Shown here: positions 1-62,184 of the stretch, piece after piece
Numbering within the stretch: the stretch's first letter is position 1
Layout of the letters: each line of letters starts with the position of its first letter
NCBI GenBank assembly: GCA_037443085.1
Contig: JBBIPA010000002.1
Coordinates: forward strand, 79,658 to 143,657
Reading direction: 5' to 3'
From: Chloroflexota bacterium
GTDB lineage: Bacteria; Chloroflexota; Dehalococcoidia; GIF9; UBA5629
DNA length: 64,000 nucleotides
Program-made: the position numbers and the translations under genes
The notes under the pieces: generated by a model
Told to the model about the DNA's origin: nothing
Databases searched by the model: none
The model's input: only the letters and a program-made list of their open reading frames with translations

Positions 1-90
1 ATTCTCGTTCTCGCCGATCTCTACCTTGGTATCCATGACTTTGACTACGGGGCAGCAGGAACCTGCTTTGCATAATGATACGATTTTCAT
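1..90 (-). CDS. partial ORF (first 30 codons, MKIVSLCKAGSCCPVVKVMDTKVEIGENEN..., continues past window start); small Cys-containing protein of unknown function
   Basis: ATG at 88-90 (reverse strand) preceded by AAGGAG RBS; frame open to window edge. Confidence 0.3.
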   Translation of the reverse strand, partial: MKIVSLCKAGSCCPVVKVMDTKVEIGENEN

Positions 91-208
91 TTTCACTCCT
101 TACTTTTTAGATTTTTAGAAGTATGCATAGCCCCACCCGCGGGCAGAAACACTCTGTTAATTTTATACTAACTCCAACCCATAAGTACAAACTGTTTCAT
201 TTGCCAGC

Positions 209-481
209 TCAGCCGCCATGTATCAGCGCGACGATGGTAAGCTCGTCACCGTCCTTTACCGGTTTAGCCAGGTCTTCAGGATAGCAACTCGTTGAATTCA
301 CATAAACATCCCAGAGGTCAGCCAGCTTGCCCTCTTTATCATAAAGCTGTTCCTTTATCCCGGGACACTTCGCCTCTAAATCATCGAGGCATTCTCCAAC
401 CGTTTTTCCCTTCACGGCAATCGTCTTCTCCCCCACGGTATATTGCCGTAGAAAGGAATGTATCCGTATGGTCACGCTCAT
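209..481 (-). CDS. MoaD/ThiS-family sulfur-carrier protein (90 aa, C-terminal ...DGDELTIVALIHGG)
   Basis: Internal Met of ORF 209-628 gives a 90 aa product with beta-grasp ThiS/MoaD pattern and C-terminal Gly-Gly; longer ORF would overlap rel. Confidence 0.7.
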   Translation of the reverse strand: MSVTIRIHSFLRQYTVGEKTIAVKGKTVGECLDDLEAKCPGIKEQLYDKEGKLADLWDVYVNSTSCYPEDLAKPVKDGDELTIVALIHGG

Positions 482-558
482 TCTGATATTATACGCCAAG
501 TGCATGATATAACGCATTTGCATCGATTCGTGAATTTGCATTATCATAACCTTTACAG

Positions 559-2727
559 GTGGCGGATATGGATGCGACTCCTCTGATAGAAAAAGCCAAA
601 CAATACCTGCCTCAGGAGAAATTGGCATTAATCGAGGCAGCCTATCAATTTGCCGCTAAAGCGCATGAAGGACAGGTACGCAAATCGGGCGCGCCTTATC
701 TGGAACACCCTGTGGAAACGGCTTCGATTCTGGCAGACCTCCAGCTTGATGCCTCCACTCTAGCTGCCGCCTTGCTCCATGACGTCACTGAAGACTGCAA
801 AGTCCCTCTCTCTGAAATCGAGGCTAAGTTCGGCCCGGAGATAAGCAAGCTGGTGGAAGGCGTCACCAAATTGAGCAGACTGTCCTGGCATAGGAGCGCC
901 GCAGACAAAAAGAATTCCCAGGCGGAGAACCTGCGTAAAATGCTGATCGCCATGGCAGAGGACCTGAGGGTAATATTCATCAAACTTGCGGACCGATTGC
1001 ACAATATGCGGACGCTGTCTCCCCTGTCGCCTGAGAAAAGGCGCCACATTGCTCGTGAGACGCTGGACATATATGCGCCGCTCGCCCACAGGCTGGGCAT
1101 CTGGGAAGTAAAGTGGCAATTGGAAGACCTGTCCTTCCGCTATCTCGAGCCGCAACAGTATCGCCAGGTCGCCAAACTGGTATCGGCGCGTCGTACCGAG
1201 AGAGAAAATTACATGGCGGAAACTACCAGGACACTGGAGCAGGAGCTGGAGAAGGCAGCCGTCAAAGCCAAGGTATTCGGCCGCGCCAAGCACATTTACA
1301 GCATCTATAATAAGATAAACAAGTACGCTGCCCAGGGCAAAGATTTCGGCGATATTCACGACCTCTTTGCCCTGCGAATTCTGGTGGATACCGTCCCTGA
1401 CTGCTACAAAGCGCTCGGCGTCATCCACAATTTATGGCATCCCCTGCCCGAAGAGTTTTCTGACTACATCGCCAATCCTAAAGACAACGGATATCAATCT
1501 CTGCATACCACCGTGCTCCTTCGCGGCACTACCCCGCTCGAAGTTCAAATTCGGACTTACGAGATGCACCGAATTGCTGATTACGGCGTTGCTGCCCACT
1601 GGCGTTACAAGGAGAGCGGTAAACCGGACATACAGTTCGAGGATAAAATCGCCTGGCTGCGCCAGCTTATCGAATGGCAGAGCGAGCTGGACAGCGAGCA
1701 ATTCCTGGAATCGCTGAAAACAGATGTTTTCAGCGACCAGGTCTTTGCCTACACTCCCAAAGGAGAAATTAAGGCTCTGCCGAGAGGCGCTACCCCCCTC
1801 GACTTTGCCTATAGAATCCATACGGAACTGGGACATCGCTGCATCGGCACCAAGGTAAACGGCAAACTGGTGCCGCTGAACCATGAATTGAAAAATGGCG
1901 ATATTATAGAAATCATGGTAACCAAAGCCGACAGAGGTCCCAGCTTGGATTGGCTCAATCCAGACCTGGGCTATGTCAAAACTTCTCATGCCAAAGAGAA
2001 AATCCGCCAGTGGTTTAAGAAACAGGAGCGCACGCTTAACATAGAGCGCGGCCGGCAGCTTCTGGAGAGAGAGGTGAAGCGCTTAGGCATAATCCTGCCC
2101 AATACCGACGATATCGCTCGCTTAATGAACTATGAAACGTACGATGATTTTCTGGCAGCCATCGGCAGCGGCGGCGTCACCGCCCATCAACTGGTGCTCA
2201 AACTAACCGAGGAGCCGGAAGAACCACCGCTGCCCGTAGCCAAAGTCCTGCCTTCAGAAAAACCGAACATCCTGGGAATCCAGGTCCTCGGCGTCGGCGA
2301 TTTGCTTACCCGGCTGGGCGTCTGCTGTAATCCTTTGCCCGGCGATGATATAATTGGTTTCATTACTCGCAGCCAGGGGATTACGGTACATCGTAAAGAC
2401 TGCCCCAACATCATCAACTTAAAAGAAAAGGAACGCTTAATCGAAGTGAAGTGGGGCAAGGTGCACGAGGTATATCCGGTCAATATTGAAATTGAAACAT
2501 GGAACCGGGTAGGAGTGCTGAGGGACATTGCGGCTGTGATTGCTGAGGAGAATATAAATATATCTACTATCAACGTTGAGGAACACGGCGATACCAGCTT
2601 TATGTTTTTTGTCCTGGATATCAACAACATGATACAGCTTAACCATATACTATCGAAGATTCGCAGTGTGCGCGGCGTTATCAATGCCGCAAGGAGCAGC
2701 CGAACCAAGGCTGCCATTAATTCTTAA
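559..2727 (+). CDS. rel: bifunctional (p)ppGpp synthetase/hydrolase RelA/SpoT (HD, synthetase, TGS, ACT domains)
   Basis: 722 aa; HD hydrolase motif region, RelA_SpoT synthetase region, C-terminal TGS/ACT pattern. Confidence 0.95.
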   Translation: MADMDATPLIEKAKQYLPQEKLALIEAAYQFAAKAHEGQVRKSGAPYLEHPVETASILADLQLDASTLAAALLHDVTEDCKVPLSEIEAKFGPEISKLVEGVTKLSRLSWHRSAADKKNSQAENLRKMLIAMAEDLRVIFIKLADRLHNMRTLSPLSPEKRRHIARETLDIYAPLAHRLGIWEVKWQLEDLSFRYLEPQQYRQVAKLVSARRTERENYMAETTRTLEQELEKAAVKAKVFGRAKHIYSIYNKINKYAAQGKDFGDIHDLFALRILVDTVPDCYKALGVIHNLWHPLPEEFSDYIANPKDNGYQSLHTTVLLRGTTPLEVQIRTYEMHRIADYGVAAHWRYKESGKPDIQFEDKIAWLRQLIEWQSELDSEQFLESLKTDVFSDQVFAYTPKGEIKALPRGATPLDFAYRIHTELGHRCIGTKVNGKLVPLNHELKNGDIIEIMVTKADRGPSLDWLNPDLGYVKTSHAKEKIRQWFKKQERTLNIERGRQLLEREVKRLGIILPNTDDIARLMNYETYDDFLAAIGSGGVTAHQLVLKLTEEPEEPPLPVAKVLPSEKPNILGIQVLGVGDLLTRLGVCCNPLPGDDIIGFITRSQGITVHRKDCPNIINLKEKERLIEVKWGKVHEVYPVNIEIETWNRVGVLRDIAAVIAEENINISTINVEEHGDTSFMFFVLDINNMIQLNHILSKIRSVRGVINAARSSRTKAAINS

Positions 2728-2741
2728 GAAAGGAGACAGGT

Positions 2742-3059
2742 TTGCCTAAAAGTACATCAGCTGAAAAAGCAGCCCGAGCCAGCGAAAGGAAACGGTTACG
2801 CAACCGTTCCATAAAAAGTGCCTCGAAGACGTACGTTGCCAAAGCAGAGGGCATGATTCAAGGCAACGAGCTTGATTCAGCCCAAGCAGTGGTAACAGAA
2901 GCGATAAGTGTCTTGGATAAGGCAGCCAAGAAGAGGGTGATTCATCCACATACTGCCAGCAGACGCAAGTCCCGGCTCATGAAGAAACTGCAAAAGGCGA
3001 AAGCCGCTGCCAAAACCACTGCAACCACGGCTGAGGCCAAAACAAAGAAGAAAAACTAG
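2742..3059 (+). CDS. rpsT: 30S ribosomal protein S20
   Basis: 105 aa basic Ala/Lys-rich protein typical of S20; TTG start 6 nt after AGGAGA. Confidence 0.9.
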   Translation: MPKSTSAEKAARASERKRLRNRSIKSASKTYVAKAEGMIQGNELDSAQAVVTEAISVLDKAAKKRVIHPHTASRRKSRLMKKLQKAKAAAKTTATTAEAKTKKKN

Positions 3060-3070
3060 GCTATAAATTA

Positions 3071-3130
3071 AAGCCCGTTCTCAGAGTATTCGGTAATAAC
3101 ACCTTTATCGGAGAACGGGCTTTGATTTTG
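3071..3130 (+). terminator. intrinsic terminator after rpsT (12-bp stem AAGCCCGTTCTC...GAGAACGGGCTT then TGATTTTGG)
   Basis: perfect 12 bp inverted repeat 3071-3082/3111-3122 followed by T-rich tract; also lies 3' of convergent ilvE. Confidence 0.55.
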
Positions 3131-3145
3131 GTGATGATGAGACTG

Positions 3146-4065
3146 CTATCGATGTGACGCCTTAGACACTTTAGAGTATACCGGGCTGCACCAATCTCGA
3201 TATTTCGAATTCTTGCCCTGTATCACCTGGAAGTAAATCTTCTGTAGCTCCCCGGTGATTTTTCCGGTCTTACCATTGCCCACTGGCCGCTCATCAACCT
3301 CTATTATCGGAGTGACATGGGCGGCAGTGCCGGTGAAAAATGCTTCATCAGCAATATAAAGCTCACTGCGGTCAATAGACCTCTCTATGGTCTCTATGCC
3401 CAGCTCCTTCCTGGCCAGTTGCATCACCGTATCCCGGGTGATGCCCATCAATATATTATCAGGGCTTGGCGGTGTTACCAGCTTATCTTTAAGCACAATG
3501 AAAATATTCTCGCCACTACCCTCGGCAACATGACCGTCGTGACTCAACAGGATAGCCTCATCAAAACCTCTTTCGATAGCCTCGCTCTTTGCCAGGGCGC
3601 TGTTCACATAAATGCCGGTAATCTTGCCCCTGGCGGGAATCATGGTATCATCAACACGTCGCCATGAAGACGTGCAGCAGCGCACCCCCTTATCGGCATC
3701 GAGATATGCCGGCAAGATTACCACCAGGATGAAAAAATCATCTTCTATATCATGGAGACGAACTCCCACTCTCTCAGCACTTTTATATGCCAGAGGACGT
3801 ATGTACACATCCTCCTTGTACCCGCTTTTTTCCACCAGTTTCACGGTGAGGTCACATAATTCCTCGACGGTGTACGGCAGCCCTGATGGAGACGCTCATA
3901 ATGCTCTTTGGCACGGAATACAAAAACTTGCTCCTGTTCAGCATTCCAGTTACCGCGTATGCCCTCAAAGCAGGCAGTGCCATAATGCAGGGCATGGGTC
4001 AGAATTCCAATTTTGGCCTCCTCCAGAGGCATGAACTGTTTTCGGAAAAAAGCATACGGAGGCAT
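3146..4065 (-). pseudogene. ilvE: branched-chain amino acid aminotransferase (class IV) with disrupted reading frame (N-terminal 74 aa in one frame, C-terminal 232+ aa in another)
   Basis: ORF 3841-4065 encodes ...EAKIGILTHALHYGTACFEGIRG...FRAKEHYERLHQ; ORF 3146-3844 frame encodes LPYTVEELCDLTVKLVEKSGYKEDVYIRPL...SSWRR...NYVNS...EGSGENIF; frames switch near 3850-3880 with about 5 residues missing relative to E. coli IlvE. Confidence 0.7.
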
Positions 4066-4438
4066 TACCGTTCCTCCCCCCTTTCAATTTTGCTGCAAAA
4101 GTGAAAGTTATTATAGCTTTTGATTCTCACAAAAACAAGATTTTTGCCAGTTTTCCCTGCGGCAACCAAAGTCGCTGCCACTAACCTCAATCATCAGTTC
4201 AGAACCGCACAGCTTACTTTGATTCAGTGGGGGCAGACGAGTAACTGCCGGTATCAACATGTTGCAATAATCCTAAACCTATTGACTATGAGTACGTTAT
4301 GGCATATGATATGTTCAACATACATACGGTATTAGCCACATTAGTTACCATCAGGGGGCAAAAGCCGCAGCTTGCGGTAATGCTTTTTTAATCAGGGGGA
4401 ATGGGGGAAGTACTAGAAGTATTGGAGGGGTAAAAACG

Positions 4439-5515
4439 ATGATTACGATTAAATGTCCCAAATGCCAGACGGATAATCTTTATGATGCCGAATTCTGTCG
4501 CCATTGTGGCTTGAGACTAGCCAAAGACTGCCCCAGTTGCAGCGCCAGCAATCCTCATCAATTCACCTTCTGTACCCAATGCGGGCAGATCCTGGTATCT
4601 CCTCCACTAACCCCCGTAGTAGAGGCGAAGGAGGCAGCAAAGGCCGAAGTATCCGAAGAAATCAAAGAAAAAGTTCAGGTGGCCCCGGAGAAAGAAGCAG
4701 AGGCGCCGGAACCAGTTGCCCAAATAGCACCCCAAGAAATAATTGAGGAGGCGCCGAAGGCAGAAGTCAAAGAGGAAGCCAGAGAAGAAGTAGCCATAGA
4801 TGTGGTGATGCCTGACAGGGTATTGACCGGCATCAGCGGCCTCGACCCCCTTATTGGCGGGGGCTTCTTAGCCGGCAAAGTCTATTTAGTCAGCGGCGAA
4901 TCCGGCACCGGCAAAACCGTGTTCGGCATGCAGTTCCTGTACCAGGGGCTTGTCCTGGGTGAAAACGGCATCTATATTTCAGCAGAGGACAAACCGGCTC
5001 ACCTCATCGTTGATGCCGAGTCTTTGGGCTGGGACTTGAGGAAATACGTCCGGGAACGAAAGCTGGGGCTGATGGACATATCATCCTATTTTGCTGAGAT
5101 GCGTTCTGGCAGGGCAACAACTATTGATGTTGACGCTGTGATTATTGACCTCGCCCGTCAGGTCAGGGAGCTTAATGCCCAACGTATCGTCATTGATACC
5201 ATTGCACCTCCGGTATGCGCGCAGGAGCACTACTCGTATATACAGGAATATGTGCGGCATCTGGTAGCTGCTATCGAGGATAACCTGGGCTGTACCGTAG
5301 TGGTCACCTCCGGCATACCTGCCGGCTCCGCGGCTCTCTCCCGCTATGGCATTGAGGAGTTCGTGGCTGAGGGAGTCATCGTTCTGGGAATGGCTAGTTT
5401 CAACGGTTATTGGTTTCGCACGCTGTCTATCAGGAAAATGCGCAGCACTTTTTCCGACCTCAATAACCATTTCTTCGATATCCTTCCTCAAAGAGGTATG
5501 GTAATCAGGGGATAA
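4439..5515 (+). CDS. KaiC/RecA-superfamily ATPase with N-terminal double zinc ribbon and acidic Glu/Ala/Lys/Pro linker
   Basis: N-terminal CPKC...CRHC...CPSC...CTQC; Walker A GESGTGKT after GISGLDPLIGGG (KaiC/Rad55-like). Confidence 0.75.
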   Translation: MITIKCPKCQTDNLYDAEFCRHCGLRLAKDCPSCSASNPHQFTFCTQCGQILVSPPLTPVVEAKEAAKAEVSEEIKEKVQVAPEKEAEAPEPVAQIAPQEIIEEAPKAEVKEEAREEVAIDVVMPDRVLTGISGLDPLIGGGFLAGKVYLVSGESGTGKTVFGMQFLYQGLVLGENGIYISAEDKPAHLIVDAESLGWDLRKYVRERKLGLMDISSYFAEMRSGRATTIDVDAVIIDLARQVRELNAQRIVIDTIAPPVCAQEHYSYIQEYVRHLVAAIEDNLGCTVVVTSGIPAGSAALSRYGIEEFVAEGVIVLGMASFNGYWFRTLSIRKMRSTFSDLNNHFFDILPQRGMVIRG

Positions 5516-5638
5516 CCGTAGCAGTAAACTTCACCACCATCATCACCCGAAATAAGGGCTGGCATAGCTCTCCCCATCAATGCTATAGTATAGCCAGTTC
5601 ATGCCATAAATCAGGCAGCATAAAGCAGGAATCAACGT

Positions 5639-7668: not shown

Positions 7669-8550
7669 ATGGCAGAGATTGTGTACCTCAATGGGGTTCT
7701 GGTTCCGCTGTCACTGACGAACATCTCGCCGTTCGACCATGGCTTCCTCTACGGCTATGGCCTGTTTGAAACTATGCGTGCCTATAACGGTATTATTTTT
7801 CGCTTGGAACGCCATCTGGACAGGCTGCGCCAGGCTGCCGAAATGCTGGGACTGCATAGCCGGCTGGCTAACTTCGACCTGGAAAGTGCCTGTTACCATG
7901 TTCTATCCACCAACGAACTGAGCGATGCCCGCCTCAGGCTTACCGTATCGGCGGGCGAAGGCGACATCGTCCCCAACCCGACTGCCTGCCAGGGCATAAC
8001 TGTTTTCATCGTGGCTCGCAAGCTGACACCGCTACCACTGGAACAGTATGAGAAAGGCTACACGGCGATAGTCTCTTCGTTGCGACGCAATAGCCAGTCG
8101 CTGCTGTCACGACTCAAGACCAGCTGTTATCTGGAGAATGTTCTGGCCAGGCAGGAGGCTAAAGCTGCGGGTGCTGATGAAGCGGTGCTGTTAAATGAGC
8201 AAGAGCTGGTTGCCGAAGGTAGCGGCAGTAATATCTTCTTAGTGCATAAAGGGCAGCTAGTTACTCCCTCGATAGACTGCGGCGCACTTCCCGGCATTAC
8301 CCGCCAGGCGGTGCTGGAACTGGCATCATCACTGGGCATCAGGGCAACTGAAACTGAACTAAAACCAGAGAAGCTCTTCGAGGCCGATGAGGCTTTCTTT
8401 ACCAACTCCATCATCGAGATTATGCCGCTGACGCGCCTCGACGACAAACCAATTGGCTCAGGAAAACCCGGTGACCTGACCCTGCGTCTCATGGAAACCT
8501 ACACCAAGCTGGTGGCAGGGTATCAGCGTGCGCAAGCAGGCAATAGCTGA
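7669..8550 (+). CDS. pabC: aminodeoxychorismate lyase (class IV aminotransferase fold)
   Basis: 293 aa fold-type IV PLP enzyme immediately after pabBA; start codon abuts pabA stop. Confidence 0.7.
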   Translation: MAEIVYLNGVLVPLSLTNISPFDHGFLYGYGLFETMRAYNGIIFRLERHLDRLRQAAEMLGLHSRLANFDLESACYHVLSTNELSDARLRLTVSAGEGDIVPNPTACQGITVFIVARKLTPLPLEQYEKGYTAIVSSLRRNSQSLLSRLKTSCYLENVLARQEAKAAGADEAVLLNEQELVAEGSGSNIFLVHKGQLVTPSIDCGALPGITRQAVLELASSLGIRATETELKPEKLFEADEAFFTNSIIEIMPLTRLDDKPIGSGKPGDLTLRLMETYTKLVAGYQRAQAGNS

Positions 8551-11136: not shown

Positions 11137-12336
11137 TCATATAGCACGTTCCGCTGGCAGAAACCGCCAGAACACCTCATTCCCCAATAACCTGCCCCGC
11201 CTCGTCAGGCGGATATTGTCATCCACAGATTCCAGCAGCCCCAGACCGGCGAGGGCATCGACCTGTTTTCCGTACCTGCCCAGCAAATCCATGCCAAACC
11301 TGCTGCGGATGCTGCCCGGGCTAATCCCCCGGCTCAGCCTCAAGCCCAGGATAACCGCCTCAGCCAGCCGCAGCTCCGGGCTAATCTCTTCATCCCAGTC
11401 CAGGGCTGTGCGGCTGCCGCCACGAAAAGCATTCAAATATTCATCCAGGTCCGCGGTATTAGCGCAGCGGTGACCATCAATATACGAATGTGCCGCCACA
11501 CCTGCGCCGATGTAAGGCAAACCCTGCCAGTAGACCAGGTTATGCCGGCATTCGTATCCCTGTTTCGCCCAGTTCGATATCTCGTAGTGACCATAGCCGT
11601 GCGCTGCCAGCAGGTCCTCCGCCAGCTCGTAATGCTCGGCGGCGAGGTCGGGATTGAGTGATGATAGCTCCCCCCTCTCGATGGCAACGCATATCGGCTC
11701 ATCGCCCTCAAGAGTCAATGGATACAGCGAGATATGTTCAGGGGCAAGTTCAACTACCCCCTTTAGAGTTTTTTTCCAGCTAGCCAATGATTGCCCCGGC
11801 AAGCTATAAATCAAGTCTACATTGAGATTAGCAAATCCAGCATTTCGGGCAAATTGCACTGCCTCCCTTGCCTCAGCCGCACTATGAATACGACCCAGCA
11901 TAACCAACCCGGTATCATCCAGGCTCTGCATGCCCAGGCTCAGCCGGTTGATACCCAGCTTCCTGACAACAGCAAGGTACGCCTCATCCACGGTGCCGGG
12001 GTTCGCCTCGATGGTTATCTCAGCGTCCTTATCAACAGGACAGAGCGAATGGATGGTTGACATGATGTCGTTCAACTGTTCATGAGCCAGCAGGCTGGGG
12101 GTACCCCCGCCGAAGTAGACAGTGTTCAGGCAATTGCCCGCCACCCGCAGCGTCAACTCCTTCTTCAGCGCCTCGACATAGGCTGAAATGTCAGCTTCGC
12201 GACCGGCGTGCGACACAAAGGAGCAGTAGCCGCACTTTTGCCGACAGAAGGGTATATGCAGGTAAAGCGATATGCCGCCGCTCATGCTATTCCATTGCTC
12301 ATTATAGTTGCCCATTCGATTCAAAACGACCTTCAA
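11137..12336 (-). CDS. hemW: radical SAM heme chaperone HemW (HemN-like, oxygen-independent coproporphyrinogen oxidase family)
   Basis: CRQKCGYCSF radical SAM motif near N-terminus; 399 aa HemN-like C-terminal domain. Confidence 0.8.
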   Translation of the reverse strand: MKVVLNRMGNYNEQWNSMSGGISLYLHIPFCRQKCGYCSFVSHAGREADISAYVEALKKELTLRVAGNCLNTVYFGGGTPSLLAHEQLNDIMSTIHSLCPVDKDAEITIEANPGTVDEAYLAVVRKLGINRLSLGMQSLDDTGLVMLGRIHSAAEAREAVQFARNAGFANLNVDLIYSLPGQSLASWKKTLKGVVELAPEHISLYPLTLEGDEPICVAIERGELSSLNPDLAAEHYELAEDLLAAHGYGHYEISNWAKQGYECRHNLVYWQGLPYIGAGVAAHSYIDGHRCANTADLDEYLNAFRGGSRTALDWDEEISPELRLAEAVILGLRLSRGISPGSIRSRFGMDLLGRYGKQVDALAGLGLLESVDDNIRLTRRGRLLGNEVFWRFLPAERAI

Positions 12337-12458
12337 TTATAACAGAGATACCGAACAGCACTCCAAAAGTGCACCTTCGCCGTTTGCTGAGGGGAGGTTG
12401 TAATAATTTCCCCACGAAAGCAACTGCACCCGGAATAAGGTATAATGTCTAGTGGAGG

Positions 12459-12677
12459 TTGTTGATGCTCATTAAAATAGAAACCTATTTCGATGGCGAA
12501 TTTTGGTGCGCTCGTGGTATAGGGGAAGATATTTTCACCCAGGGCAAAACCCTGGATGAGTTGCACCATAACATTAAAGAAGCTATTACAGTCCACTTTG
12601 GTGACACAGTCGAGCCTATTACCATCCTCACCCTGTCTGAGGTACAACTGACAAATGCCAAAACTCCCACAGGTTAG
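12459..12677 (+). CDS. hicB: HicB-family antitoxin (small UPF0150 type)
   Basis: 72 aa; overlaps hicA-like gene by 23 nt. Confidence 0.65.
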   Translation: MLMLIKIETYFDGEFWCARGIGEDIFTQGKTLDELHHNIKEAITVHFGDTVEPITILTLSEVQLTNAKTPTG

Positions 12678-12897
12678 TGGCAACTCAGTTATCAATCTTC
12701 TTAGAACTATGGGCGACGCAGTCCTGAGACAGAAAGGCAGTCATGTCAGACTGCAAAAAGTCACCCCTCTAGGAGAGCATAATGTTACCGTTCCTATTCA
12801 TAAGGTTCTTGCCAAAGGGACATTAAACGATATTCTTAATAAAGTGAGTCTGTGGAATAATGTCAGCAAAGACGAACTTCTAAGTAAGTTACGATGA
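12655..12897 (+). CDS. hicA: HicA-family mRNA interferase toxin
   Basis: 80 aa; ...LRQKGSHVRLQK...HKVLAKGTL matches HicA dsRBD-like pattern with catalytic His. Confidence 0.7.
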   Translation: MPKLPQVSGNSVINLLRTMGDAVLRQKGSHVRLQKVTPLGEHNVTVPIHKVLAKGTLNDILNKVSLWNNVSKDELLSKLR

Positions 12898-13109
12898 TTC
12901 AACATGATGTAGAAATGCCCAGCATTAATGCCTTCTTCACCAATATGTCCGTCCCCATGCCTGTTCATCGCAAACTGTACCTGGTGTTCCGCAATAACTT
13001 CATCAAGCTGCGGAATGGACAGAGCTGCTGCGGGCATCATGGCGAGCCCGGCTGCTGACAGGTGGCCGACGAGGCTCCTGGTCAAGGAGAAATCACCGGA
13101 CAACAATAG

Positions 13110-13784
13110 ATGACCACCACGGAACTGGAAGTAAACGGCAAGACGCTGACCTGCACCATACGGTATAAGCGCATTCGTCATGCCTATTTGAGGATAAAAC
13201 CGAACTTCCACCTCGATATCAGCCTCCCCCGCAACAACAGCATTACCGCCGATAGCATCCTCAGCGAGAAACGCCGCTGGCTGGAAAAGAAGGTTAGAGA
13301 GCTATCGCGGATAAACAAAATTTTCAAAGACGGCACGGTGCTGTTCCAGGGCGACTACGTCAAGGTGGTGATGCAGATGGCGGTGCAGCCTCATGCTGAG
13401 GTGAAGCTGGATAACAGGGCTCTTACTGTCTTCGGGAAGGCGGGGCAGAAAACCGATAAGCTATTAGCCGAGTTCATCACCAGCCAGACCCTGTCATATG
13501 TGAAGCCAAAAGCGGTGGAATACGCCAGGGAGCTGGGGGTCACCTATCATAACATTGCCACCAAAGAGACCCGGAGCTGGGGCTACTGCACCCGCCAGGG
13601 CATCTTATTCTTCAACTGGCGGCTGATTTGCCTACCGCCACGCCTGGTGGACTTCATCGTGTTCCACGAGCTGCTCCACCTCAAGCACTTCAACCACTCC
13701 AAGCGCTTCAAAAACGCCATGGCACAACAGTTTACCGACTGCAAAGAGCTGGAAGCTCTATTGAAAACGTATTCGGCACATTAA
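13110..13784 (+). CDS. YgjP-like metal-dependent hydrolase (DUF45/M48-like, HExxH)
   Basis: 224 aa with FHELLHLKHFNHSKRF zinc-binding motif typical of YgjP/SprT-like hydrolases. Confidence 0.75.
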   Translation: MTTTELEVNGKTLTCTIRYKRIRHAYLRIKPNFHLDISLPRNNSITADSILSEKRRWLEKKVRELSRINKIFKDGTVLFQGDYVKVVMQMAVQPHAEVKLDNRALTVFGKAGQKTDKLLAEFITSQTLSYVKPKAVEYARELGVTYHNIATKETRSWGYCTRQGILFFNWRLICLPPRLVDFIVFHELLHLKHFNHSKRFKNAMAQQFTDCKELEALLKTYSAH

Positions 13785-13793
13785 GGTTTTATA

Positions 13794-13828
13794 CTGTGGG
13801 GGTCACCTCTGGGGAGCGTGGCTCCCAC
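13794..13828. repeat. imperfect palindrome CTGTGGGGGTCACCT...GGGAGCGTGGCTCCCACA followed by A-rich tract
   Basis: left arm shares 14/15 nt with the perfect palindrome at 14611-14641. Confidence 0.45.
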
Positions 13829-13853
13829 AAAAAATAAATAAAAAGGGGGTAAA

Positions 13854-14588
13854 ATGAAAGGGATCCCAATTTTAGTCTTGATTATTATATTGTTGGCAGT
13901 CGGGATGATTTGATCTTGTGCTTCACCTCCGACAAGTACAAGCCCGTCTTCCACAGCCCCTACACCTGAACAAATACCTGCCCCAACTCCTATCCCTCCT
14001 ACACCAGATCTACCTCCAAAACAAGCTCCTTTGCCAAAAGAAATAGAGCTAAAGTATGATGACGGTGCGGGTAATATCCTCTCTCAGACTTTTGCAACGA
14101 CTTTGGCAGTCAGAAAAAACGGATATCTTGTTGATTTCGTGCCATCAGTCAAACCTTTTACAGTAAAGAAAGTTAAACTCTATGGAACTGTCAAACTATG
14201 CCCAATTTGACCTAGGCCTGCAACTGGCCTGGAAGGTCAGTTTTTCACAGTGGAGACTTGGGATAGAGACTTAAATTCACTAAATAGTACCAGTTATCCA
14301 CTAAATAAGCTTGTCGAAAATAATCTCACCTGGATAGAATTGGAGCTCCCAAATGTGGAGGTAAACGATAAATTCTATATTCACATACGTCCTGATTTTC
14401 GTCAAGACACATTCCCTCGGGTTATATTTATTGGAACTGACGATAGTATTCCGAACGACCATTCTAATTTTTCGGATTTGCAAAGCAGTGGTAGAAAAGG
14501 AAAAATCAGCGTCTGGCCCTATGAGACTGTGGATAAAAGCAAGGTTAACTGGATGATAAGAGTTGTAGGTACTTACTTGGAACCATAG
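13854..14588 (+). pseudogene. putative lipoprotein reading frame (244 codons) interrupted by two in-frame TGA codons (13911-13913 and 14208-14210)
   Basis: ATG 13854 after AAAAGGGGG; MKGIPILVLIIILLAVGMI-TGA-SCASPPTSTSPSSTAPTPEQIP... gives signal peptide plus lipobox I-X-S-C only if TGA is read through; second TGA joins ...KLYGTVKLCPI to PRPATGLEGQFFTVETWDRD...; all three segments share one frame. Confidence 0.45.
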
Positions 14589-14614
14589 CGCCACTAACAT
14601 TATTAACTTTCTGT

Positions 14615-14641
14615 GGGAGTCACCTGCCTCAGGTGACTCCC
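14615..14641. repeat. perfect 12-bp inverted repeat GGGAGTCACCTG-CCT-CAGGTGACTCCC
   Basis: read directly; lies 27 nt after the lipoprotein ORF stop. Confidence 0.6.
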
Positions 14642-14781
14642 AATCGCTACGCGGGAGCCGAAAGGCGACCCATTCCCAACCCAACAAACCAGGAATGGTG
14701 ATGGGAATGGGTGGGGTAGTGAAGTGAAGAGATCGCCACGCCCCGATTGCATCGTGGCCCACGATGATAGTGAGGGAAGGG

Positions 14782-14825
14782 TTTTTCTCCGCCGGAGGCG
14801 GACGGGCGGACCTTCAGGTCCGCCC
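14782..14825. repeat. structured repeat copy 2, inverted: T-run, CCGCC-GGA-GGCGG mini-hairpin, GGGCGGACC-TTCA-GGTCCGCCC hairpin
   Basis: reverse-complement arrangement of the element at 11073-11115, including the CC-TTCA-GG loop. Confidence 0.5.
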
Positions 14826-15350
14826 CTACACTATCTTAGGTTTCCCGGGGCGGCAGATTTCCATGAGGATGAAGCTGTAGCCGTCACGGACAAGCTGGCC
14901 GCAGGGGATAAAGCCGCATTTCTGGAAGCATTTCTGCGCCCGGGTATTCCATTTCAGCGTCTTGAGGTAAACCCTGTTCAGCCTGGTATGTGAAAATATA
15001 TAGTCCACAACCGTCTGTATGGCATCGGCACCATAACCCTGGTCCCAGTATGCTTTGTTGCCGAGCATGATGCCCATCTCTGTCTCGCCGTTCTCCTCGT
15101 CCATATCGAAACAGCTACAGTTGCCGATATGCTTGCCGCTGAAGGTTTCGATGGCAAAATGGCAGGAGCGGCTGGTCTGAGACGGCGCCTCCGCCGCCAG
15201 CCGCAAATACTCTTCAAAGGAACTGCTAGTAGGCTGCGTGGCATCAAGACGGCACAGCTCAGTATCCTGCCGCCACTGATAATCCTCGATGGCATCGTAG
15301 AGACGCTTGGGTCGCAGCTTGACTTTATTGCCAGTAAGTATCGGCAGCAT
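14826..15350 (-). CDS. GNAT-family N-acetyltransferase (RimJ/RimL-like)
   Basis: 174 aa with acetyl-CoA binding pattern ...GYGADAIQTVVDYIF... Confidence 0.75.
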   Translation of the reverse strand: MLPILTGNKVKLRPKRLYDAIEDYQWRQDTELCRLDATQPTSSSFEEYLRLAAEAPSQTSRSCHFAIETFSGKHIGNCSCFDMDEENGETEMGIMLGNKAYWDQGYGADAIQTVVDYIFSHTRLNRVYLKTLKWNTRAQKCFQKCGFIPCGQLVRDGYSFILMEICRPGKPKIV

Positions 15351-15352
15351 GG

Positions 15353-16285
15353 TTAAGAGCCAAATGGTAATGGTTCATCGTCAAAATCAAGGTCTTTCAG
15401 TGCCGTGCGGGCTGCCTGACGGACTCGCTGCTGTGAACTTTTGGCGAGCCTGGTCAGAGCCTGCCTGGCTTCCTCACTGCCGATTTCACCCAGCCCCTTG
15501 ATGGCTACCTCCTGCACCCGGCTGTCTTTATCGGCGGCCAGTTTGATCAGGTGTGGCAATGCATCCTCGGCGCCCAGCTCACTGAGGGCATGGGCTGCCT
15601 CATAGCGTATCTCGGCATTATCGTTGTCGAGCTCCCTGACTAATAGCGACAGCCAGGACTCATTGCAATTGCGTCCCATGGCACGGAGGGCGCATAGTTT
15701 ACGCTCAGCACTTTTGCTGCGGTAGGCTGCCTTTATCAAGTCAGGTACCCGCGGCAGGTTCAGCGTGGCGATGGCCTCCAGCGCCAGGCACTGCAATTCA
15801 CCGCCTGCCGAGGTATCATCCAGCACTGCCAGCAATGCCTGGTACACCTCATTGGTCGAGGCAGTGGACAGCTTTCCTATCTCCCCGAGCAGGGCGAATT
15901 TACCCAGAGCCAGCACGGCAGCCTCTTTCACGGCAGCCGAGCTATCCTTGGCTAATAACTGGGTCAGCGGTGCAATATGGCGATAGTCCTCCTCATCGGC
16001 TAAACCGGAAATAGCCTCGGCTCTTACCTGGGCATCGAGGTCTTGAAGGCAAAAGAAAAATATCTCGCTGAAGTTCACCCGGAAGTTGGTCTGGCTGAGC
16101 TTTACCAGTTGCATAATAACCTGCCGCCGGCGCTCTGTCATAGTTCTCGCCCAGGACTGTTTCATGAAGTCGAGGTCACTCTCATTGAGGTTGGACAGGT
16201 GAATCAGCTTAGACGGCACCAGCAGCTCGTTGGGGTCGAGGGTGGCGGCAATATACTTCTTATTGGAAGCGGCTTCCTGCCTCAC
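15353..16285 (-). CDS. HEAT-repeat (PBS lyase-like) protein
   Basis: tandem ~30 aa repeats with ...VRxxAAxALGxIG... pattern. Confidence 0.7.
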   Translation of the reverse strand: MRQEAASNKKYIAATLDPNELLVPSKLIHLSNLNESDLDFMKQSWARTMTERRRQVIMQLVKLSQTNFRVNFSEIFFFCLQDLDAQVRAEAISGLADEEDYRHIAPLTQLLAKDSSAAVKEAAVLALGKFALLGEIGKLSTASTNEVYQALLAVLDDTSAGGELQCLALEAIATLNLPRVPDLIKAAYRSKSAERKLCALRAMGRNCNESWLSLLVRELDNDNAEIRYEAAHALSELGAEDALPHLIKLAADKDSRVQEVAIKGLGEIGSEEARQALTRLAKSSQQRVRQAARTALKDLDFDDEPLPFGS

Positions 16286-17134
16286 CTAGTTCTCCTTGTG
16301 TTCCTCTTCGTCGTCCTCTTCATCTTCCTCCTCTTCTTCTTCGTACTCCTCCACATCTTCCGGCGGCCATACCGGCTTGGTATAGCTGGTGATGAACTCC
16401 TCCATGGCTTCAGCAGCTAATTTCTTCATCTCTTCATCCGTCTGTTTGGCCACCACCGCCAGCTCCGCCAGGTCGATATCGATGTCGAGTATCTTCACCA
16501 TGACGCCCAGGATAGCCAGCGCCGCTTTGGGATTGGGTATGCGCGTGGTATACATGGGTACCTCGCCTAGCAGGCAGATGCCATCCATCTCCCGCTCCTT
16601 GGCTACTCCCAGGAACAAGCCGTTGAGGCCGGCAATCTGAATGTCTCCGCGGAGCACCACGTCATATTTCTTTAGCTCGTCAACCAGATTCTGATTGGTC
16701 GCCGCCGCCCAGACACGGGGCATTTCAGTGTGATGAATCTTGGCAATGGCGGCGGCGCAGGTGTATACCCGCTTAATGCGGAGCTTTTTACCCATGTCCA
16801 GAACGCAGTTCGCCAGCTCATAGCCCTTGGTACCGGGCTGTTCATCGCTGATAAACAGCAGCAACCCCCGGTCCGATTTGGGATTGTGCCAGTAATAGAA
16901 TTTGCTTTCGGGAAACTGGGGAGCTTCGACGATGTTGTTCTTGACCATGACGCCAATGGGATTGTAGAACTCAAAGGGCTCGATAGTGCCGACCTCTTCA
17001 GCCTTCAGCTTATCCTTCAGATACCGAGCCAGTATCAGCGACACATTGCCGATGCCGGGCCATGAGGCAAACAGGTCGTAATCCTTTGACTTCAACTCCT
17101 TGGAGAGCCTGATGGCATTCTTCATGGTATTCAT
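16286..17134 (-). CDS. PAC2-family protein (archaeal PbaA/proteasome-assembly-chaperone-like) with poly-acidic C-terminal tail
   Basis: WPGIGNVSLILARYLKDKLKAEEVGTIE matches PAC2 N-terminal signature; C-terminus EDVEEYEEEEEEDEEDDEEEHKEN; no HbYX motif. Confidence 0.65.
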   Translation of the reverse strand: MNTMKNAIRLSKELKSKDYDLFASWPGIGNVSLILARYLKDKLKAEEVGTIEPFEFYNPIGVMVKNNIVEAPQFPESKFYYWHNPKSDRGLLLFISDEQPGTKGYELANCVLDMGKKLRIKRVYTCAAAIAKIHHTEMPRVWAAATNQNLVDELKKYDVVLRGDIQIAGLNGLFLGVAKEREMDGICLLGEVPMYTTRIPNPKAALAILGVMVKILDIDIDLAELAVVAKQTDEEMKKLAAEAMEEFITSYTKPVWPPEDVEEYEEEEEEDEEDDEEEHKEN

Positions 17135-25451: not shown

Positions 25452-25853
25452 TCAGGCGCTTCGCCGCACCTCCATCCCATCGCCCGGGAATCGCTCATCT
25501 AGGGAGCAGACTACATGACTGCCAGCGGAACGTGCCGCCGCCCATACCATAGCATCGGCAAAGGACACCCTTCCCGAGGGGCGGCACAGGAGTAGAGCGT
25601 GGAGCACCAGGCTCTTGTCCAGGGCGAAAGTTGAGATATTCTCCTTCTGCAAGAAAGCTATCAAGTGGTCCACTGCTACTTCCCGGGGAACCTGGTATAC
25701 TGATGTCAGGACGTATGCTGTCTCGGTCAGCACCACATCAGTTATCAACAGGGCATCCACTTTGTCTATGATTTTGGCGGCTTGTTCCGCTAATTCAGGT
25801 GGGTTGCCGGTAAGGTAACGAACTACGACGCTGGTGTCCAGAAAGCCGCTCAA
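25452..25853 (-). CDS. vapC: PIN-domain toxin VapC
   Basis: 133 aa; N-terminal FLDTSVVV acidic PIN signature. Confidence 0.8.
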   Translation of the reverse strand: MSGFLDTSVVVRYLTGNPPELAEQAAKIIDKVDALLITDVVLTETAYVLTSVYQVPREVAVDHLIAFLQKENISTFALDKSLVLHALLLCRPSGRVSFADAMVWAAARSAGSHVVCSLDERFPGDGMEVRRSA

Positions 25854-25858
25854 GATAG

Positions 25859-26128
25859 CTACTCCCCCGCGCCCATTTTTTGCTTCGCTGCTTTGCCCCA
25901 GGCCATATCACGGGCTTTATCCCACTCCTGTCCCGGAGGCACATGCGCTCTCATGTGCTTTGCCAAACTACCTTTCAGGGATTTCCGGTGTTCCGGCGGC
26001 AGGAAATAGACCTCCACATGGTCATCCACTAGGCGCTGTAGAGCTAACCAACCGGCCCCTATACCGAGCCGGTCACGTATCTCCTTGGCAATAACAATCT
26101 GCCCTTTAAATCCTACCACATGTGCCAC
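25859..26128 (-). CDS. vapB: AbrB/MazE-type antitoxin VapB
   Basis: 89 aa; N-terminal swapped-hairpin pattern VGFKGQIVIAKEIRDRLGI; 5 nt upstream of vapC. Confidence 0.7.
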   Translation of the reverse strand: MAHVVGFKGQIVIAKEIRDRLGIGAGWLALQRLVDDHVEVYFLPPEHRKSLKGSLAKHMRAHVPPGQEWDKARDMAWGKAAKQKMGAGE

Positions 26129-26717: not shown

Positions 26718-26990
26718 CTATGTCTGATATGTAGTCTCGGAGCGGCGTGCCACCTGTAATATCAAGACCAGTTTCTGGTCATCATATATCTCATAAACGA
26801 TTCGATAATAACCCGCCCTTATTCTATAGGCTTTCTCGGCTCCCTCTATTTTCCTTGCCCCATAAGGACGTGGTTCTTGAGCTAAGTTATTGATAGTAGT
26901 GCGCAAACGGTCAAAATCATGGCGTTGAATATGCTTCTTCAGCTTATCCAAGTCGCGGTCAGCGGACGGTGATACCTCAAGCCTGTACAC
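26718..26990 (-). CDS. RelE/ParE-family toxin
   Basis: 90 aa with RelE/ParE pattern ...KAYRIRAGYYRIVYEIYDDQKLVLILQVARRSE. Confidence 0.8.
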   Translation of the reverse strand: MYRLEVSPSADRDLDKLKKHIQRHDFDRLRTTINNLAQEPRPYGARKIEGAEKAYRIRAGYYRIVYEIYDDQKLVLILQVARRSETTYQT

Positions 26991-27258
26991 CTTTTGCCCC
27001 GGCTGCTTTTTCTCGTTCGGCTATTGCTTCCTCCAGTTCACTCTCCACTTCAGACCAGGGACGTCCACCCTTTTGACGCCATTCGGCATGGGCGATTTCG
27101 ATTGCAGGGAGCAGCTCGGCGTCTTCCCGGCTCTCCAGCCATTCACGCACAGCCTCAGCCACAATATCACTTGCCGGCTTATGCCGTCTTGCCGCCTCCA
27201 CTTTTAAATAGGTGTAGAGGTCTTCATTATGAAATACTACAGTCATCTTTCTGCTCAT
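26977..27258 (-). CDS. antitoxin partner of RelE/ParE toxin (RHH/ParD-like)
   Basis: 93 aa acidic protein overlapping toxin start by 14 nt. Confidence 0.55.
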   Translation of the reverse strand: MSRKMTVVFHNEDLYTYLKVEAARRHKPASDIVAEAVREWLESREDAELLPAIEIAHAEWRQKGGRPWSEVESELEEAIAEREKAAGAKGVQA

Positions 27259-36377: not shown

Positions 36378-38243
36378 TTACTGCAGCAGATTGAGGATGC
36401 TCTCTATGGCAGCCTTGCTGGCGAATGGCTGGTTCTTTTCTATCTTCCTGATGATGCCGGTACTATCGAGAAAGAAGGTTTGAGGCCAACTGGTGATATT
36501 ATAGGTGGATTTCACTACCCCGTCGGAGTCAAGCAAGACCGGGAAGGTATAGCTATTGCTAGTTATATAAGCCTGCGCCTGCGCCTGCGCTGCTGCTGCA
36601 GTCTCCCCAGACCTGACCAAATGAACTGTAAGTACCACCAATGGCTTGGCAGAATATGTTGTGGAAACTGATTGAATATGCGGCATCTCGGTTTTACATG
36701 GGCCACAATCCCAGTGCCAGAAATTAATCATCACCAGCTTGCCTTTGAAGCTGCTTAATGTTACATCCGCACCCTGAAGGTTTTTCAATTTAATATCGGG
36801 AGCTCGATTACCCACCTGGGTACCTACGGGAGTAGTATCTGGCGGTTGCCCTTGTTTCCCAGGAACAAAAGTATAGTCCATTTCATAGATGCCTTTATTG
36901 CCGCTGGCATCCATCGATTCAATGGTAATATGGTATTTTGTATTGAGCTGGATTTTAAGTTTATCAAAAGCTAACACTATAAAATGGTTTTTGACCAAGG
37001 TGGCATCAGGTTCTGCATAAATACACAATTTATCTGGATCACACAGCATGATTTGGCTGGTTGCCTTCTCGTTAGTAGTCCATTCGATAGTGGCAGAGGA
37101 AGCAGTAACATCGGTGACATTTACCTCTGAAACTACCGGCGGAGTTTTATCCAGGGTAGGCGTCGTTGGCGTTGACGGCGGGGAGATTATCTGGCTGACC
37201 ACGAACATTACCATGGCAACGAGCACTGCGGCAACCACAAAAACGGCAGCCAGAAGCCCTATGGGGAAACCACCCCTGCGCTCCCCGCGATACGGCCGTT
37301 CCTTCTTCTCTTTGACCTTAGCTTTTCTTTCTCTTTCAGGATATTCCCCCTCTGCAACAGGAGAGCCTCCCATTTCCGGCGCATACGGTCCATACAAATC
37401 CCGAACCAGACCGCCTGATGAGGCAGTTTCCATTGATGGTGTCATCTGCCCCATTCCCATTGGCGTACCACTTCTTGCCTTCTCTGCCGCGCCGATATTG
37501 TAGCCCTGGGCGCCTGTATGGCGGCTGGGGCCGGAATAGTTGCCGCACTGACGACAAAACCGAGAATCGGCGGGCACAATAGCACCACAGAAGGGACAGG
37601 GACGTCCCACATCCTGCGGATGGGAGAGCTGCTGTTGACCGGCAAAGCTTTGCTGCCGGGGCGGTGGTCCGGTGACATATCCCTGAGATGTGCCGCCAGG
37701 CGGGTGCTGTTGTGGTATCTCATATGTTAGCGAACCAATATAGCCACAATTCTGGCAGCTTCCGGTACGGGGGTCAGCTCTGGCGCCACACCTGGGGCAG
37801 ACATATGCCAGCTTGGCATCATGCGTGCCTGGATATTGCTGCTGAACCGCATACTGCTGGCCTGCCGGTGCAAAATGCCCACCCGTTCCGGGAGCTTGAG
37901 CCGGTGCTGGCTGCTGTTCTCCTCGGGATTGCCCCCCACCAAGGATAAAGCCGCAGTTATGGCAACGCCCGTAGGAAACTATGGTTTTAACCTTGCACCT
38001 GGGGCAAATATTTTCCTTCACTTCAGGAATGCCCGGGGCATGATGAACTGCAGACTCTAATGAGAAACCTCTTGCTTGAGGTTTCCAGGTACGGTCTTCA
38101 AAGCCACAGTAACGACAAATTTTAGAATCGATAATATGCCCACTGGGACATGACCTGGTACCGCACTGGCTACAGACTACCTCGCTGGGCTGCTTGGGCG
38201 CTCGGCAGGCGGGACAAAAGGCGACCTTAGGTCCCAGCGGCAT
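36378..38243 (-). CDS. membrane protein: cytoplasmic multi-zinc-ribbon region, one TM, FN3 domain, C-terminal TlpA/ResA-like thioredoxin (WDCGPC)
   Basis: 621 aa; about six CxxC...CxxC ribbons and a Gln/Pro-rich region; positive-inside TM; FN3 signature VTASSATIEWTTNEKATSQI; KLVMINFWHWDCGPCKTEMP. Confidence 0.7.
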   Translation of the reverse strand: MPLGPKVAFCPACRAPKQPSEVVCSQCGTRSCPSGHIIDSKICRYCGFEDRTWKPQARGFSLESAVHHAPGIPEVKENICPRCKVKTIVSYGRCHNCGFILGGGQSRGEQQPAPAQAPGTGGHFAPAGQQYAVQQQYPGTHDAKLAYVCPRCGARADPRTGSCQNCGYIGSLTYEIPQQHPPGGTSQGYVTGPPPRQQSFAGQQQLSHPQDVGRPCPFCGAIVPADSRFCRQCGNYSGPSRHTGAQGYNIGAAEKARSGTPMGMGQMTPSMETASSGGLVRDLYGPYAPEMGGSPVAEGEYPERERKAKVKEKKERPYRGERRGGFPIGLLAAVFVVAAVLVAMVMFVVSQIISPPSTPTTPTLDKTPPVVSEVNVTDVTASSATIEWTTNEKATSQIMLCDPDKLCIYAEPDATLVKNHFIVLAFDKLKIQLNTKYHITIESMDASGNKGIYEMDYTFVPGKQGQPPDTTPVGTQVGNRAPDIKLKNLQGADVTLSSFKGKLVMINFWHWDCGPCKTEMPHIQSVSTTYSAKPLVVLTVHLVRSGETAAAAQAQAQAYITSNSYTFPVLLDSDGVVKSTYNITSWPQTFFLDSTGIIRKIEKNQPFASKAAIESILNLLQ

Positions 38244-58704: not shown

Positions 58705-58713
58705 GGAGACTCT

Positions 58714-59907: not shown

Positions 59908-59926
59908 GCCGCTCTGACTGACTTCC

Positions 59927-62176: not shown

Positions 62177-62184
62177 AATATCAG

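Follow-up and report, generated by a model that had tools for sequence, protein, structure and literature searches.

The fdhF gene of E. coli is the model case of an in-frame UGA codon with a selenocysteine insertion sequence (SECIS) hairpin after it. The consensus model of the bacterial element (bSECIS) is that of Zhang and Gladyshev, as summarized in PMC13188914, where CxxU (U, selenocysteine or Sec) is one of the two commonest selenoprotein motifs and nearly all known selenoproteins have cysteine forms. Some metagenome-assembled genomes (MAGs) of Dehalococcoidia are among the most selenoprotein-rich bacteria catalogued, with 46-49 selenoproteins per genome (PMC13326102). In this work, we analyzed a 64,000-nt stretch of a Chloroflexota genome from this class (GenBank assembly GCA_037443085.1, contig JBBIPA010000002.1, positions 79,658 to 143,657), referred to below as the window, and within it a lipoprotein gene (13854..14588, plus strand) whose single reading frame contains two TGA codons, at 13911-13913 and 14208-14210. 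The second of them is very likely a conserved recoded codon.

The gene shares with the described bacterial selenoprotein genes a conserved in-frame UGA, a hairpin that starts 11 nt after it, a stem of 5-9 bp, an apical loop that begins with GG 17-20 nt after the codon, and the CxxU motif. It differs from them in that no Cys counterpart was found for the Sec position, and in that a loop insertion of a lectin-like beta-sandwich, and not an active site of the thioredoxin-like or metal-cofactor type, carries the predicted Sec. An extracytoplasmic precedent is provided by the Rcas_1661 family of thioredoxin-like (seleno)lipoproteins (NCBIfam NF041057), which is able to carry Sec; we take the family to be named after a Roseiflexus locus tag, so that it presumably occurs in Chloroflexota. 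This family, which goes by the name of 'DsbG-like protein' in PMC13188914, combines a thioredoxin fold with a UxxC motif, and its domain is not homologous to that of the window protein, the match between the two (E=0.019; 14.5 bits against a cut-off of 190) being confined to the signal peptide and the Pro-rich linker. The TonB-dependent receptor of the FCYXU-motif type, UshA-like selenoprotein family 2, and the cobalamin-binding BtuF (Table 1 in PMC13188914) are computational predictions that combine CxxU with a secreted or envelope location and a non-redox fold, but no sequence similarity to the window protein was found, and their NCBIfam models score nothing on it. With respect to the first TGA, a parallel exists in the 'pseudo-pseudogenes' of Salmonella enterica, in which a single in-frame stop is absent from relatives and the gene is otherwise intact (PMC9122581), although most of the read-through described there involved UAG.

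Reading frame, assembly, and genetic code

The single frame with two in-frame TGA codons, as it had been described in an initial annotation of this DNA, was confirmed. It runs on the plus strand from ATG 13854 to TAG 14586-14588 and encodes, in order, the signal peptide MKGIPILVLIIILLAVGMI, the first TGA (codon 20), S-C-A, a Pro/Thr-rich linker, and a globular segment with the second TGA (codon 119), the two halves of which belong to a predicted beta-sandwich domain. The second TGA is followed by 125 sense codons before the TAG; the figure of 112 given earlier is the length of a mechanically called open reading frame (ORF) that starts at GTG 14250. The base after the second TGA is C, in agreement with the earlier description, and the base after the first is T (UGA-U). 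An independent Logan assembly of run SRR11582151 (L087), the underlying reads of which are probably shared, is 100% identical over window positions 11353-16492 (5.1 kb) and contains both TGA codons, so that an assembler error, which had been considered as a possible cause of the interruptions, is unlikely.

TGA is a genuine stop in the host genome. Six real genes of the window terminate in TGA, the DinB gene has its TGA at the exact place where the orthologue in the related locus L092 has TAA, and no other gene in the 64-kb window is split by TGA; on these grounds, reassigned codes (tables 4 and 25) were rejected. The sole tRNA in the window is a tRNA-Ser, and no suppressor tRNA was found there. 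Among window ORFs of at least 200 codons, the stops are TAA in 28 cases, TAG in 20, and TGA in 8, an unusual distribution for a genome of ~51% guanine plus cytosine (GC), and the 38 called genes of relatives (loci L089-L093) use TAG 16, TAA 14, and TGA 8 times; TGA is thus the rarest stop in the clade, as sampled by the window and these loci.

Conservation of the second TGA codon

Scans of genomes and metagenomes yielded only paralogues without the TGA, at no more than 45% identity, and the informative relatives were obtained in an exhaustive phmmer search that covered 1.84 billion representatives. This search revealed N-terminal fragments that stop exactly at window residue 118, ending in LCPS, YCPV, YCPS, PCPI, or HCPI where the window has LCPI, together with C-terminal fragments that start just past the same residue. 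Three further protein clusters ending in CPI came from later searches, which gives eight clusters ending in C-P-x in all. In the DNA of four independent homologous loci, L095 (with copies L096-098), L099, L100, and L101, each gene has one in-frame stop, which is always TGA and always directly follows C-P-[S/V/I]. It is always succeeded by a Pro codon CCN, UGA-CC being common to all five genes, and the frame past it covers the conserved C-terminal half up to an ordinary TAG or TAA. In the window, the corresponding C-P-I-U motif (Cys116, Pro, Ile, and the second TGA) occupies 14199..14210 on the plus strand. The TGA-bearing proteins, window included, are 33-63% identical to one another, and gene callers cut each of the homologous genes into two. 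The UGA thus keeps its position in homologues of other organisms, as expected of a bacterial selenoprotein gene.

These homologues bear on several points of the initial annotation. Separately initiated split genes, which would have spoken against the observation, are not what the relatives have: none of the homologues has a start codon after the TGA, and both halves are part of the predicted beta-sandwich. The two TGA codons had been treated alike, whereas only the second is conserved, at C-P-x in four divergent homologues, and the first is private to this copy. The leaky TGA-C context had been offered as an explanation of the second TGA; its conserved position and the SECIS-like hairpin described below speak against this and point instead to programmed Sec insertion, a possibility that the initial annotation had left out of account.

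A +1 frameshift of the prfB type at AUU-UGA-C was also considered and rejected: the +1 frame, read by eye, hits TAA after 21 codons, and the zero frame carries the family homology. One database protein, P0248 (94 aa, LPRPANGLEG...), is a C-terminal fragment of the C-P-x-U subfamily with an in-frame Leu instead of the stop before PRP; it has no recognizable N-terminal half and may be a frameshifted or rearranged copy.

A SECIS-like hairpin downstream of the second TGA

A hairpin with a 9-bp stem, AACUGGCCU-GGA-AGGUCAGUU (14222..14242, plus strand; -10.9 kcal/mol), starts 11 nt after the second UGA and presents its loop 20 nt after it. The bSECIS rules specify a loop of 3-9 nt with G in the first two loop positions, an upper stem of 4-16 bp, a distance of 16-37 nt from the UGA, and a minimum free energy of at most -7.5 kcal/mol (PMC13188914); the window hairpin passes them with its GGA loop, stem, spacing, and energy. 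Under SECIS-type rules, 3.1% of the 2215 TGA trinucleotides in the window are followed by a hairpin as good. None of 89 homologues without the TGA folds below -8.4 at the matching place. Resampling of synonymous codons gave P=0.004-0.014, so that the hairpin is not explained by the amino acid sequence, and the second TGA is exactly where the most stable RNA structure of the entire gene begins. A search of positions 13000-15500 against Rfam returned nothing relevant at E up to 10.

All five TGA-bearing genes (the window gene, L095, L099, L100, and L101) have the hairpin NNUGGCCU-GGA-AGGCCANN in common, with an invariant core CUGGAAGG and an invariant GGA loop 17-20 nt after the UGA. Pairing was found in 90% of cells, with compensatory double changes at three of the eight pairs, and it fell to 20-60% in slid-column controls. 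The L101 hairpin attains the energy cut-off only in an extended fold. The codon, its motif, and the hairpin behind it are all conserved. Because these three features occur together, we read TGA 14208 as a selenocysteine codon, an assignment that we regard as likely on the strength of the sequences compared.

The left arm at the second site, TGACCT.AGGCC, reads as GGCCT(GGA)AGGTCA in reverse complement. An inverted duplication by template switching was therefore considered as a sufficient origin of both the hairpin and the TGA, and was dropped, since the downstream hairpin is conserved with compensatory changes where the loop sequences differ.

The lipoprotein family and its predicted fold

The protein is one of a family with about 90 to 200 members, most of which come from MAGs of Dehalococcoidia and other Chloroflexota and from metagenomes. 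They are built from a lipoprotein signal peptide, a Pro/Thr linker, often a CARDB domain, and a conserved C-terminal domain of ~180 residues with the signature ELKYDDG ... DDSxxNEHS ... KVNWMIRVVGT. The lipobox [LVI][ASTVI][GAS]C follows the signal peptide, and the window has I-X-S-C, interrupted here by the first TGA; the codon of Cys22 (13917..13919, plus strand), the predicted lipidation site, corresponds in the alignment to the lipobox Cys, which is invariant across the family. The domain had no Pfam or NCBIfam match in any of the proteins scanned (the window protein, L095, L099, L100, P0001, P0002, and P0031), and the family therefore appears undescribed.

An AlphaFold model built from 92 sequences (predicted local distance difference test, 85) is a beta-sandwich that spans both halves of the protein. 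Among solved structures, it comes closest to the lectin-like domain of C. difficile Cwp84 (PDB 4ci7), to PHR domains, and to carbohydrate-binding modules of the CBM32/35 type; the likeness is one of fold only, at 7-13% identity, and no function is transferable from them. The second TGA sits in a loop insertion, the whole of which is absent from the homologues without the TGA. Such paralogues from Dehalococcoidia, for example P0025 (ISS51_04245, Dehalococcoidales MAG) and P0087 (Chloroflexota bin905), resemble the window protein in architecture and C-terminal domain at 33-45% identity and often have a CARDB domain, but they have neither the C-P-x-U loop insertion nor the TGA nor the hairpin. 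No in-frame stop was found within the domain in about 100 family copies from 86 loci.

Two degraded members, both without the TGA, were encountered: in L033 (6001-6391; Dehalococcoidales MAG b3.sp3_bin.43) a frameshift is combined with an internal deletion, and in L037 (3183-3281) a 33-residue remnant with a stop is left. Pseudogenization in this accessory lipoprotein family thus occurs elsewhere. No relatives were found in viral contigs, and a phage origin was rejected for that reason.

The first TGA codon is private to this copy

The first TGA (13911..13913, plus strand; context UGA-U) occupies lipobox position -2 (I-X-S-C), and each of the five relatives whose sequence covers the site has a sense residue there. 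The nearest of these, P0353, is 70% identical over residues 1-118 and has KLCPI as its last residues, as the window protein has before its second TGA; its LLAVMMICSCASP (MICSCASP) corresponds to LLAVGMI*SCASP in the window and has Cys at the site of the TGA, so that a single change at the third position (TGY to TGA) separates the window codon from one for Cys. The other four have Ala (L095 and L101) or Leu (L099 and L100). No hairpin with SECIS-type spacing or loop G follows the first TGA, and the local RNA structure ranks only 14th to 31st among about 230 positions of the gene. In contrast to the second site, the UGA is thus neither conserved in homologues nor accompanied by a bSECIS, although a Cys/TGA pair with P0353 exists. 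Of 53 highly conserved columns, the remainder of the protein deviates from the family at five, and intact members deviate at 0-10; this copy combines a private stop, for which no recoding signal was found, with an otherwise well-kept sequence.

On balance, the first TGA appears to inactivate this copy. The decaying gene proposed in the initial annotation is accordingly plausible for the first TGA, which is sense in five relatives, and fails for the second, which is conserved together with its hairpin.

A cassette at an insertion hot spot between convergent genes

The lipoprotein gene is flanked by two palindromes, and the initial annotation had pointed out the similarity of their left arms. 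The 15-mers CTGTGGGGGTCACCT (13794) and CTGTGGGAGTCACCT (14611) share 14 of 15 bases, which taken alone is borderline (0.25 matches expected; two or more in three of 100 shuffles), and comparison with relatives established that the palindromes are homologous copies. Hairpin 1 (13795..13829, plus strand; -24.8 kcal/mol, z -3.9) starts 10 nt after the stop of the YgjP gene and is conserved at the same place in L089, L092, and L093. Hairpin 2 (14614..14642, plus strand; -26.5 kcal/mol, z -4.3) is a perfect palindrome, in which arms of 13 bp enclose a 3-nt loop. Read as the reverse complement, it can be aligned to hairpin 1 and to those of L089 and L090, a CCCACA(A/G)AAA flank included, and it closes the cassette as an inverted copy of hairpin 1. 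None of 200 shuffles folds as well as either hairpin, and a 33-nt inverted repeat joins 13809-13841 with 14600-14632.

Relatives of the locus were found via the neighboring HEAT-repeat protein. In L093 and L094, convergent GNAT and YgjP genes are separated by a 45-nt spacer with a single hairpin and no cassette. L092 is similar, with a spacer of about 37 nt, and the cassette is probably absent there, the downstream gene being cut by the contig end. L089, in which the HEAT-repeat protein is 84% identical, has kept YgjP and hairpin 1 and has a HEPN gene and a gene for a 171-aa protein in place of the lipoprotein; L090 has yet other genes between the flanks, plus a hairpin in inverted orientation near GNAT; and in L088, recJ adjoins GNAT. 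Homology between the window and L089 stops at 13834 and resumes at 14646, and therefore the insert comprises 13835..14642 (plus strand), with a leader that carries a ribosome-binding site, the lipoprotein ORF, and hairpin 2. The GC content of the cassette is 0.415, with 0.34 at third codon positions of the ORF against 0.65-0.73 in the neighboring genes, and its composition matches that of the L095 and L099 loci (0.40-0.43).

The idea of a small cassette bounded by palindromes is thereby upheld: relatives have nothing or different genes at this place, and the palindromes are inverted copies of one ancestral hairpin. To judge by these gene orders, the ancestral arrangement is that of convergent YgjP and GNAT genes separated by a single hairpin, which hairpin 1 represents in the window, and the locus appears to be an insertion hot spot at that hairpin. 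Because the composition is foreign and the YgjP-GNAT locus is variable, the gene is considered to have arrived by horizontal transfer, and its donor was probably a lower-GC relative.

Two types of mobile or repeated element were rejected. A search for further copies of the hairpin arms, which had been suggested earlier, found them only at this locus within the window and 775 kb of retrieved loci, which argues against dispersed repetitive extragenic palindromic (REP)-like elements. Integron attC sites were discarded since there are no R''/R' core sites (GTTRRRY), the hairpins are conserved in sequence, and no integron integrase or recombinase was present among the window proteins scanned, the five ORFs at 57295-63957 being outside the scan.

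A conserved non-coding block directly follows the cassette (14646-14770). It is 82.7% identical to L089 3543-3418, with differing sequence on both sides, contains a perfect 11-nt inverted repeat (14668-14678 with 14702-14712), and has no Rfam match; its counterpart in L089 is bounded by two small hairpins, CCCCGAT-NNN-ATCGGGG. On the other side of YgjP, between it and HemW, lies a HicB/HicA pair (12459-12897) that is absent from L089 and L093 and therefore represents a second lineage-specific insertion next to the lipoprotein cassette.

Selenocysteine insertion and alternative explanations

In the explanation that we favor, the gene would have been acquired horizontally from a Sec-bearing subfamily of the Dehalococcoidia lipoprotein family, set apart by a short Cys-Pro-x-Sec loop insertion in a lectin-like beta-sandwich, and its product would be a cell-surface lipoprotein. 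The hairpin at 14222-14242 would serve as a bSECIS that recruits SelB with Sec-tRNA to UGA 14208. TGA 13911 would be a Cys-to-stop change within the cleaved portion of the signal peptide, ending translation after 19 codons, and the copy would be a freshly inactivated selenoprotein gene. We infer selenium insertion at UGA 14208 from the conserved features described above, and the CxxU spacing suggests that the residue may form a redox-active or metal-binding selenol-thiol pair at the cell surface. Taken whole, with an acquired seleno-lipoprotein gene, Sec at the second site, a null mutation at the first, and a location in an insertion hot spot, this explanation is fairly likely to be correct.

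The type of recoding is well known, but the C-P-x-U subfamily is very probably a family of surface lipoproteins in Dehalococcoidia that contain selenium and apparently have not been described before, and it matches no domain model in a table of 119 selenoprotein families (PMC13188914). Recognition of the TGA as a Sec codon would correct the splits into two 'hypothetical proteins' and add a family to the bacterial selenoproteome. The family would be unusual in being extracytoplasmic and lipid-anchored, with a lectin-like beta-sandwich rather than a redox fold and a Sec loop without a Cys counterpart, and it may be a useful case for the origin of Sec sites and for roles of selenium beyond the classical oxidoreductases, such as metal binding at the surface. 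The gene also illustrates that two identical stop codons in one gene can mean quite different things, and the locus adds an example from Dehalococcoidia of a small insertion hot spot, located at a hairpin between convergent genes.

Several observations weigh against this explanation. No CPxC form, with Cys in place of Sec, occurs among about 240 family proteins, so that the Cys/Sec pairing typical of selenoproteins is missing at the second site. The modeled fold is not thioredoxin-like, nor is it another known redox fold, and both thiol-disulfide oxidoreductase domains in the window use CxxC. The selA, selB, selD, and tRNA-Sec genes were not found in the 64-kb window, which is part of the genome. 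The hairpin evidence comprises five sequences, and the core of the hairpin also encodes a conserved Leu-Glu-Gly. As to the first site, the Cys/TGA pair found there is a classical hallmark of selenocysteine, and the gene has no other sign of decay than the stop itself, so that this codon could still be decoded.

These last two points lead to the alternative of a functional copy, in which the second TGA specifies Sec and the first is read either as Sec through a non-canonical signal or at a low level by near-cognate decoding as Trp or Cys, so that production of the lipoprotein would continue, perhaps in small amounts or only under certain conditions. Opposite the first TGA, Cys is found not only in P0353 but also in P0005 and P0034 (ICSCA), lipobox position -2 is tolerant (G, T, V, P, L, C, and A among 82 homologues), and the codon itself opens a local hairpin of -8.9 kcal/mol. 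Moreover, 12.6% of catalogued bacterial selenoprotein entries have no canonical SECIS (PMC13326102), and nonsense-disrupted genes of Salmonella can be translated at a low level (PMC9122581). We nevertheless consider this alternative unlikely, given the missing spacing and loop G, the modest rank of the local structure, and the fact that no other family member has a TGA at this site. A Sec residue there would be removed with the signal peptide and would have no evident use. The UGA-U context, in addition, is not known to be a leaky one in E. coli. An extended version, in which the first TGA is decoded without a canonical SECIS to give U-S-C by the lipid anchor, would make the protein a two-Sec lipoprotein and a new kind of selenoprotein, with a surface lectin-like beta-sandwich and a Sec loop that has no Cys ancestor; the chances of this are slim.

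Read-through of the second TGA without selenium, by which the hairpin and the UGA-C context would stimulate near-cognate decoding and yield truncated and full-length products, is a mechanism for which we know of no bacterial chromosomal precedent, and we regard it as very improbable. It would account for UGA-CC being kept in all five genes, for the stable structure close downstream, and for the lack of a Cys homologue of the loop, and instances in which 3' structures stimulate read-through in several viruses are given in PMC3159437. However, an invariant Cys stands three residues upstream, in the CxxU spacing that is typical of selenoproteins (Table 1 in PMC13188914), the geometry of the hairpin and its GG loop match the bSECIS model exactly, and the truncated product would be only half a beta-sandwich.

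An ordinary pseudogene, in which both TGA codons are independent nonsense mutations in a decaying accessory gene, is hardly credible. Such a history is compatible with TGA being a true stop in the host genome, with the foreign origin of the gene and its place in a variable islet, with the existence of degraded family members such as the frameshifted L033 and of another truncated gene in the window (the class IV aminotransferase at 3146-3844), and with the fact that no orthologue of more than 70% identity is intact at both sites. Independent nonsense mutations cannot, however, explain the same C-P-x TGA in four divergent homologues and its implied presence in eight clusters, nor a downstream hairpin that is conserved and covaries, and two random nonsense mutations are already refuted for the second site by the TGA and hairpin in homologue DNA. 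That two random nonsense hits should both be TGA has P of about 0.05, and that both should fall within three residues of the only two Cys residues (X20-S-C22 and C116-P-I-X119) has P of about 0.002.

An alternative genetic code, with TGA as Trp or Gly in the host or in the donor of the gene, has a negligible probability: the foreign low-GC composition and Gly as the commonest homologue residue at the first site would suit it, but host TGA terminates at orthologous stop positions, which excludes it for the host, TGG encodes all four conserved Trp residues, the homologues carry exactly one TGA each and always at the same conserved place, and neither relatives in viral contigs nor a suppressor tRNA in the window came to light.

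A possible functional lead is provided by the location of the L100 gene in a hyp cluster. In this one locus (1-5534; JGI 3300038952), a long CARDB-containing C-P-I-U gene lies inside a [NiFe]-hydrogenase maturation cluster with the gene order hypF, hypC, CARDB/DUF553 protein, predicted selenoprotein gene, hypD, and hypE.

Other features of the window

A class IV aminotransferase ORF on the minus strand (3146-3844) matches PF01063 only from profile position 48. The frame upstream of it (3845-4438) is broken by several stops, with TAA, TAG, and TGA all represented, and a stretch of about 600 nt is free of genes. The paralogue at 7669-8550 is intact, and the ORF at 3146-3844 is probably a truncated pseudogene.

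The window contains three toxin-antitoxin pairs: besides the HicB/HicA pair near the cassette, there are a PIN (VapC-like) gene with an AbrB-like gene (25452-26128) and a RelE/ParE gene with its antitoxin (26718-27258). Two large paralogous membrane proteins are encoded on the minus strand (36378-38243 and 38930-40699). Both combine multiple zinc-ribbon CxxC pairs at the N terminus with a transmembrane segment and a TlpA/AhpC-like domain, itself with CxxC, at the C terminus; the protein at 38930-40699 also has fibronectin-III repeats, and a further zinc-ribbon ORF is located just upstream of 38243.

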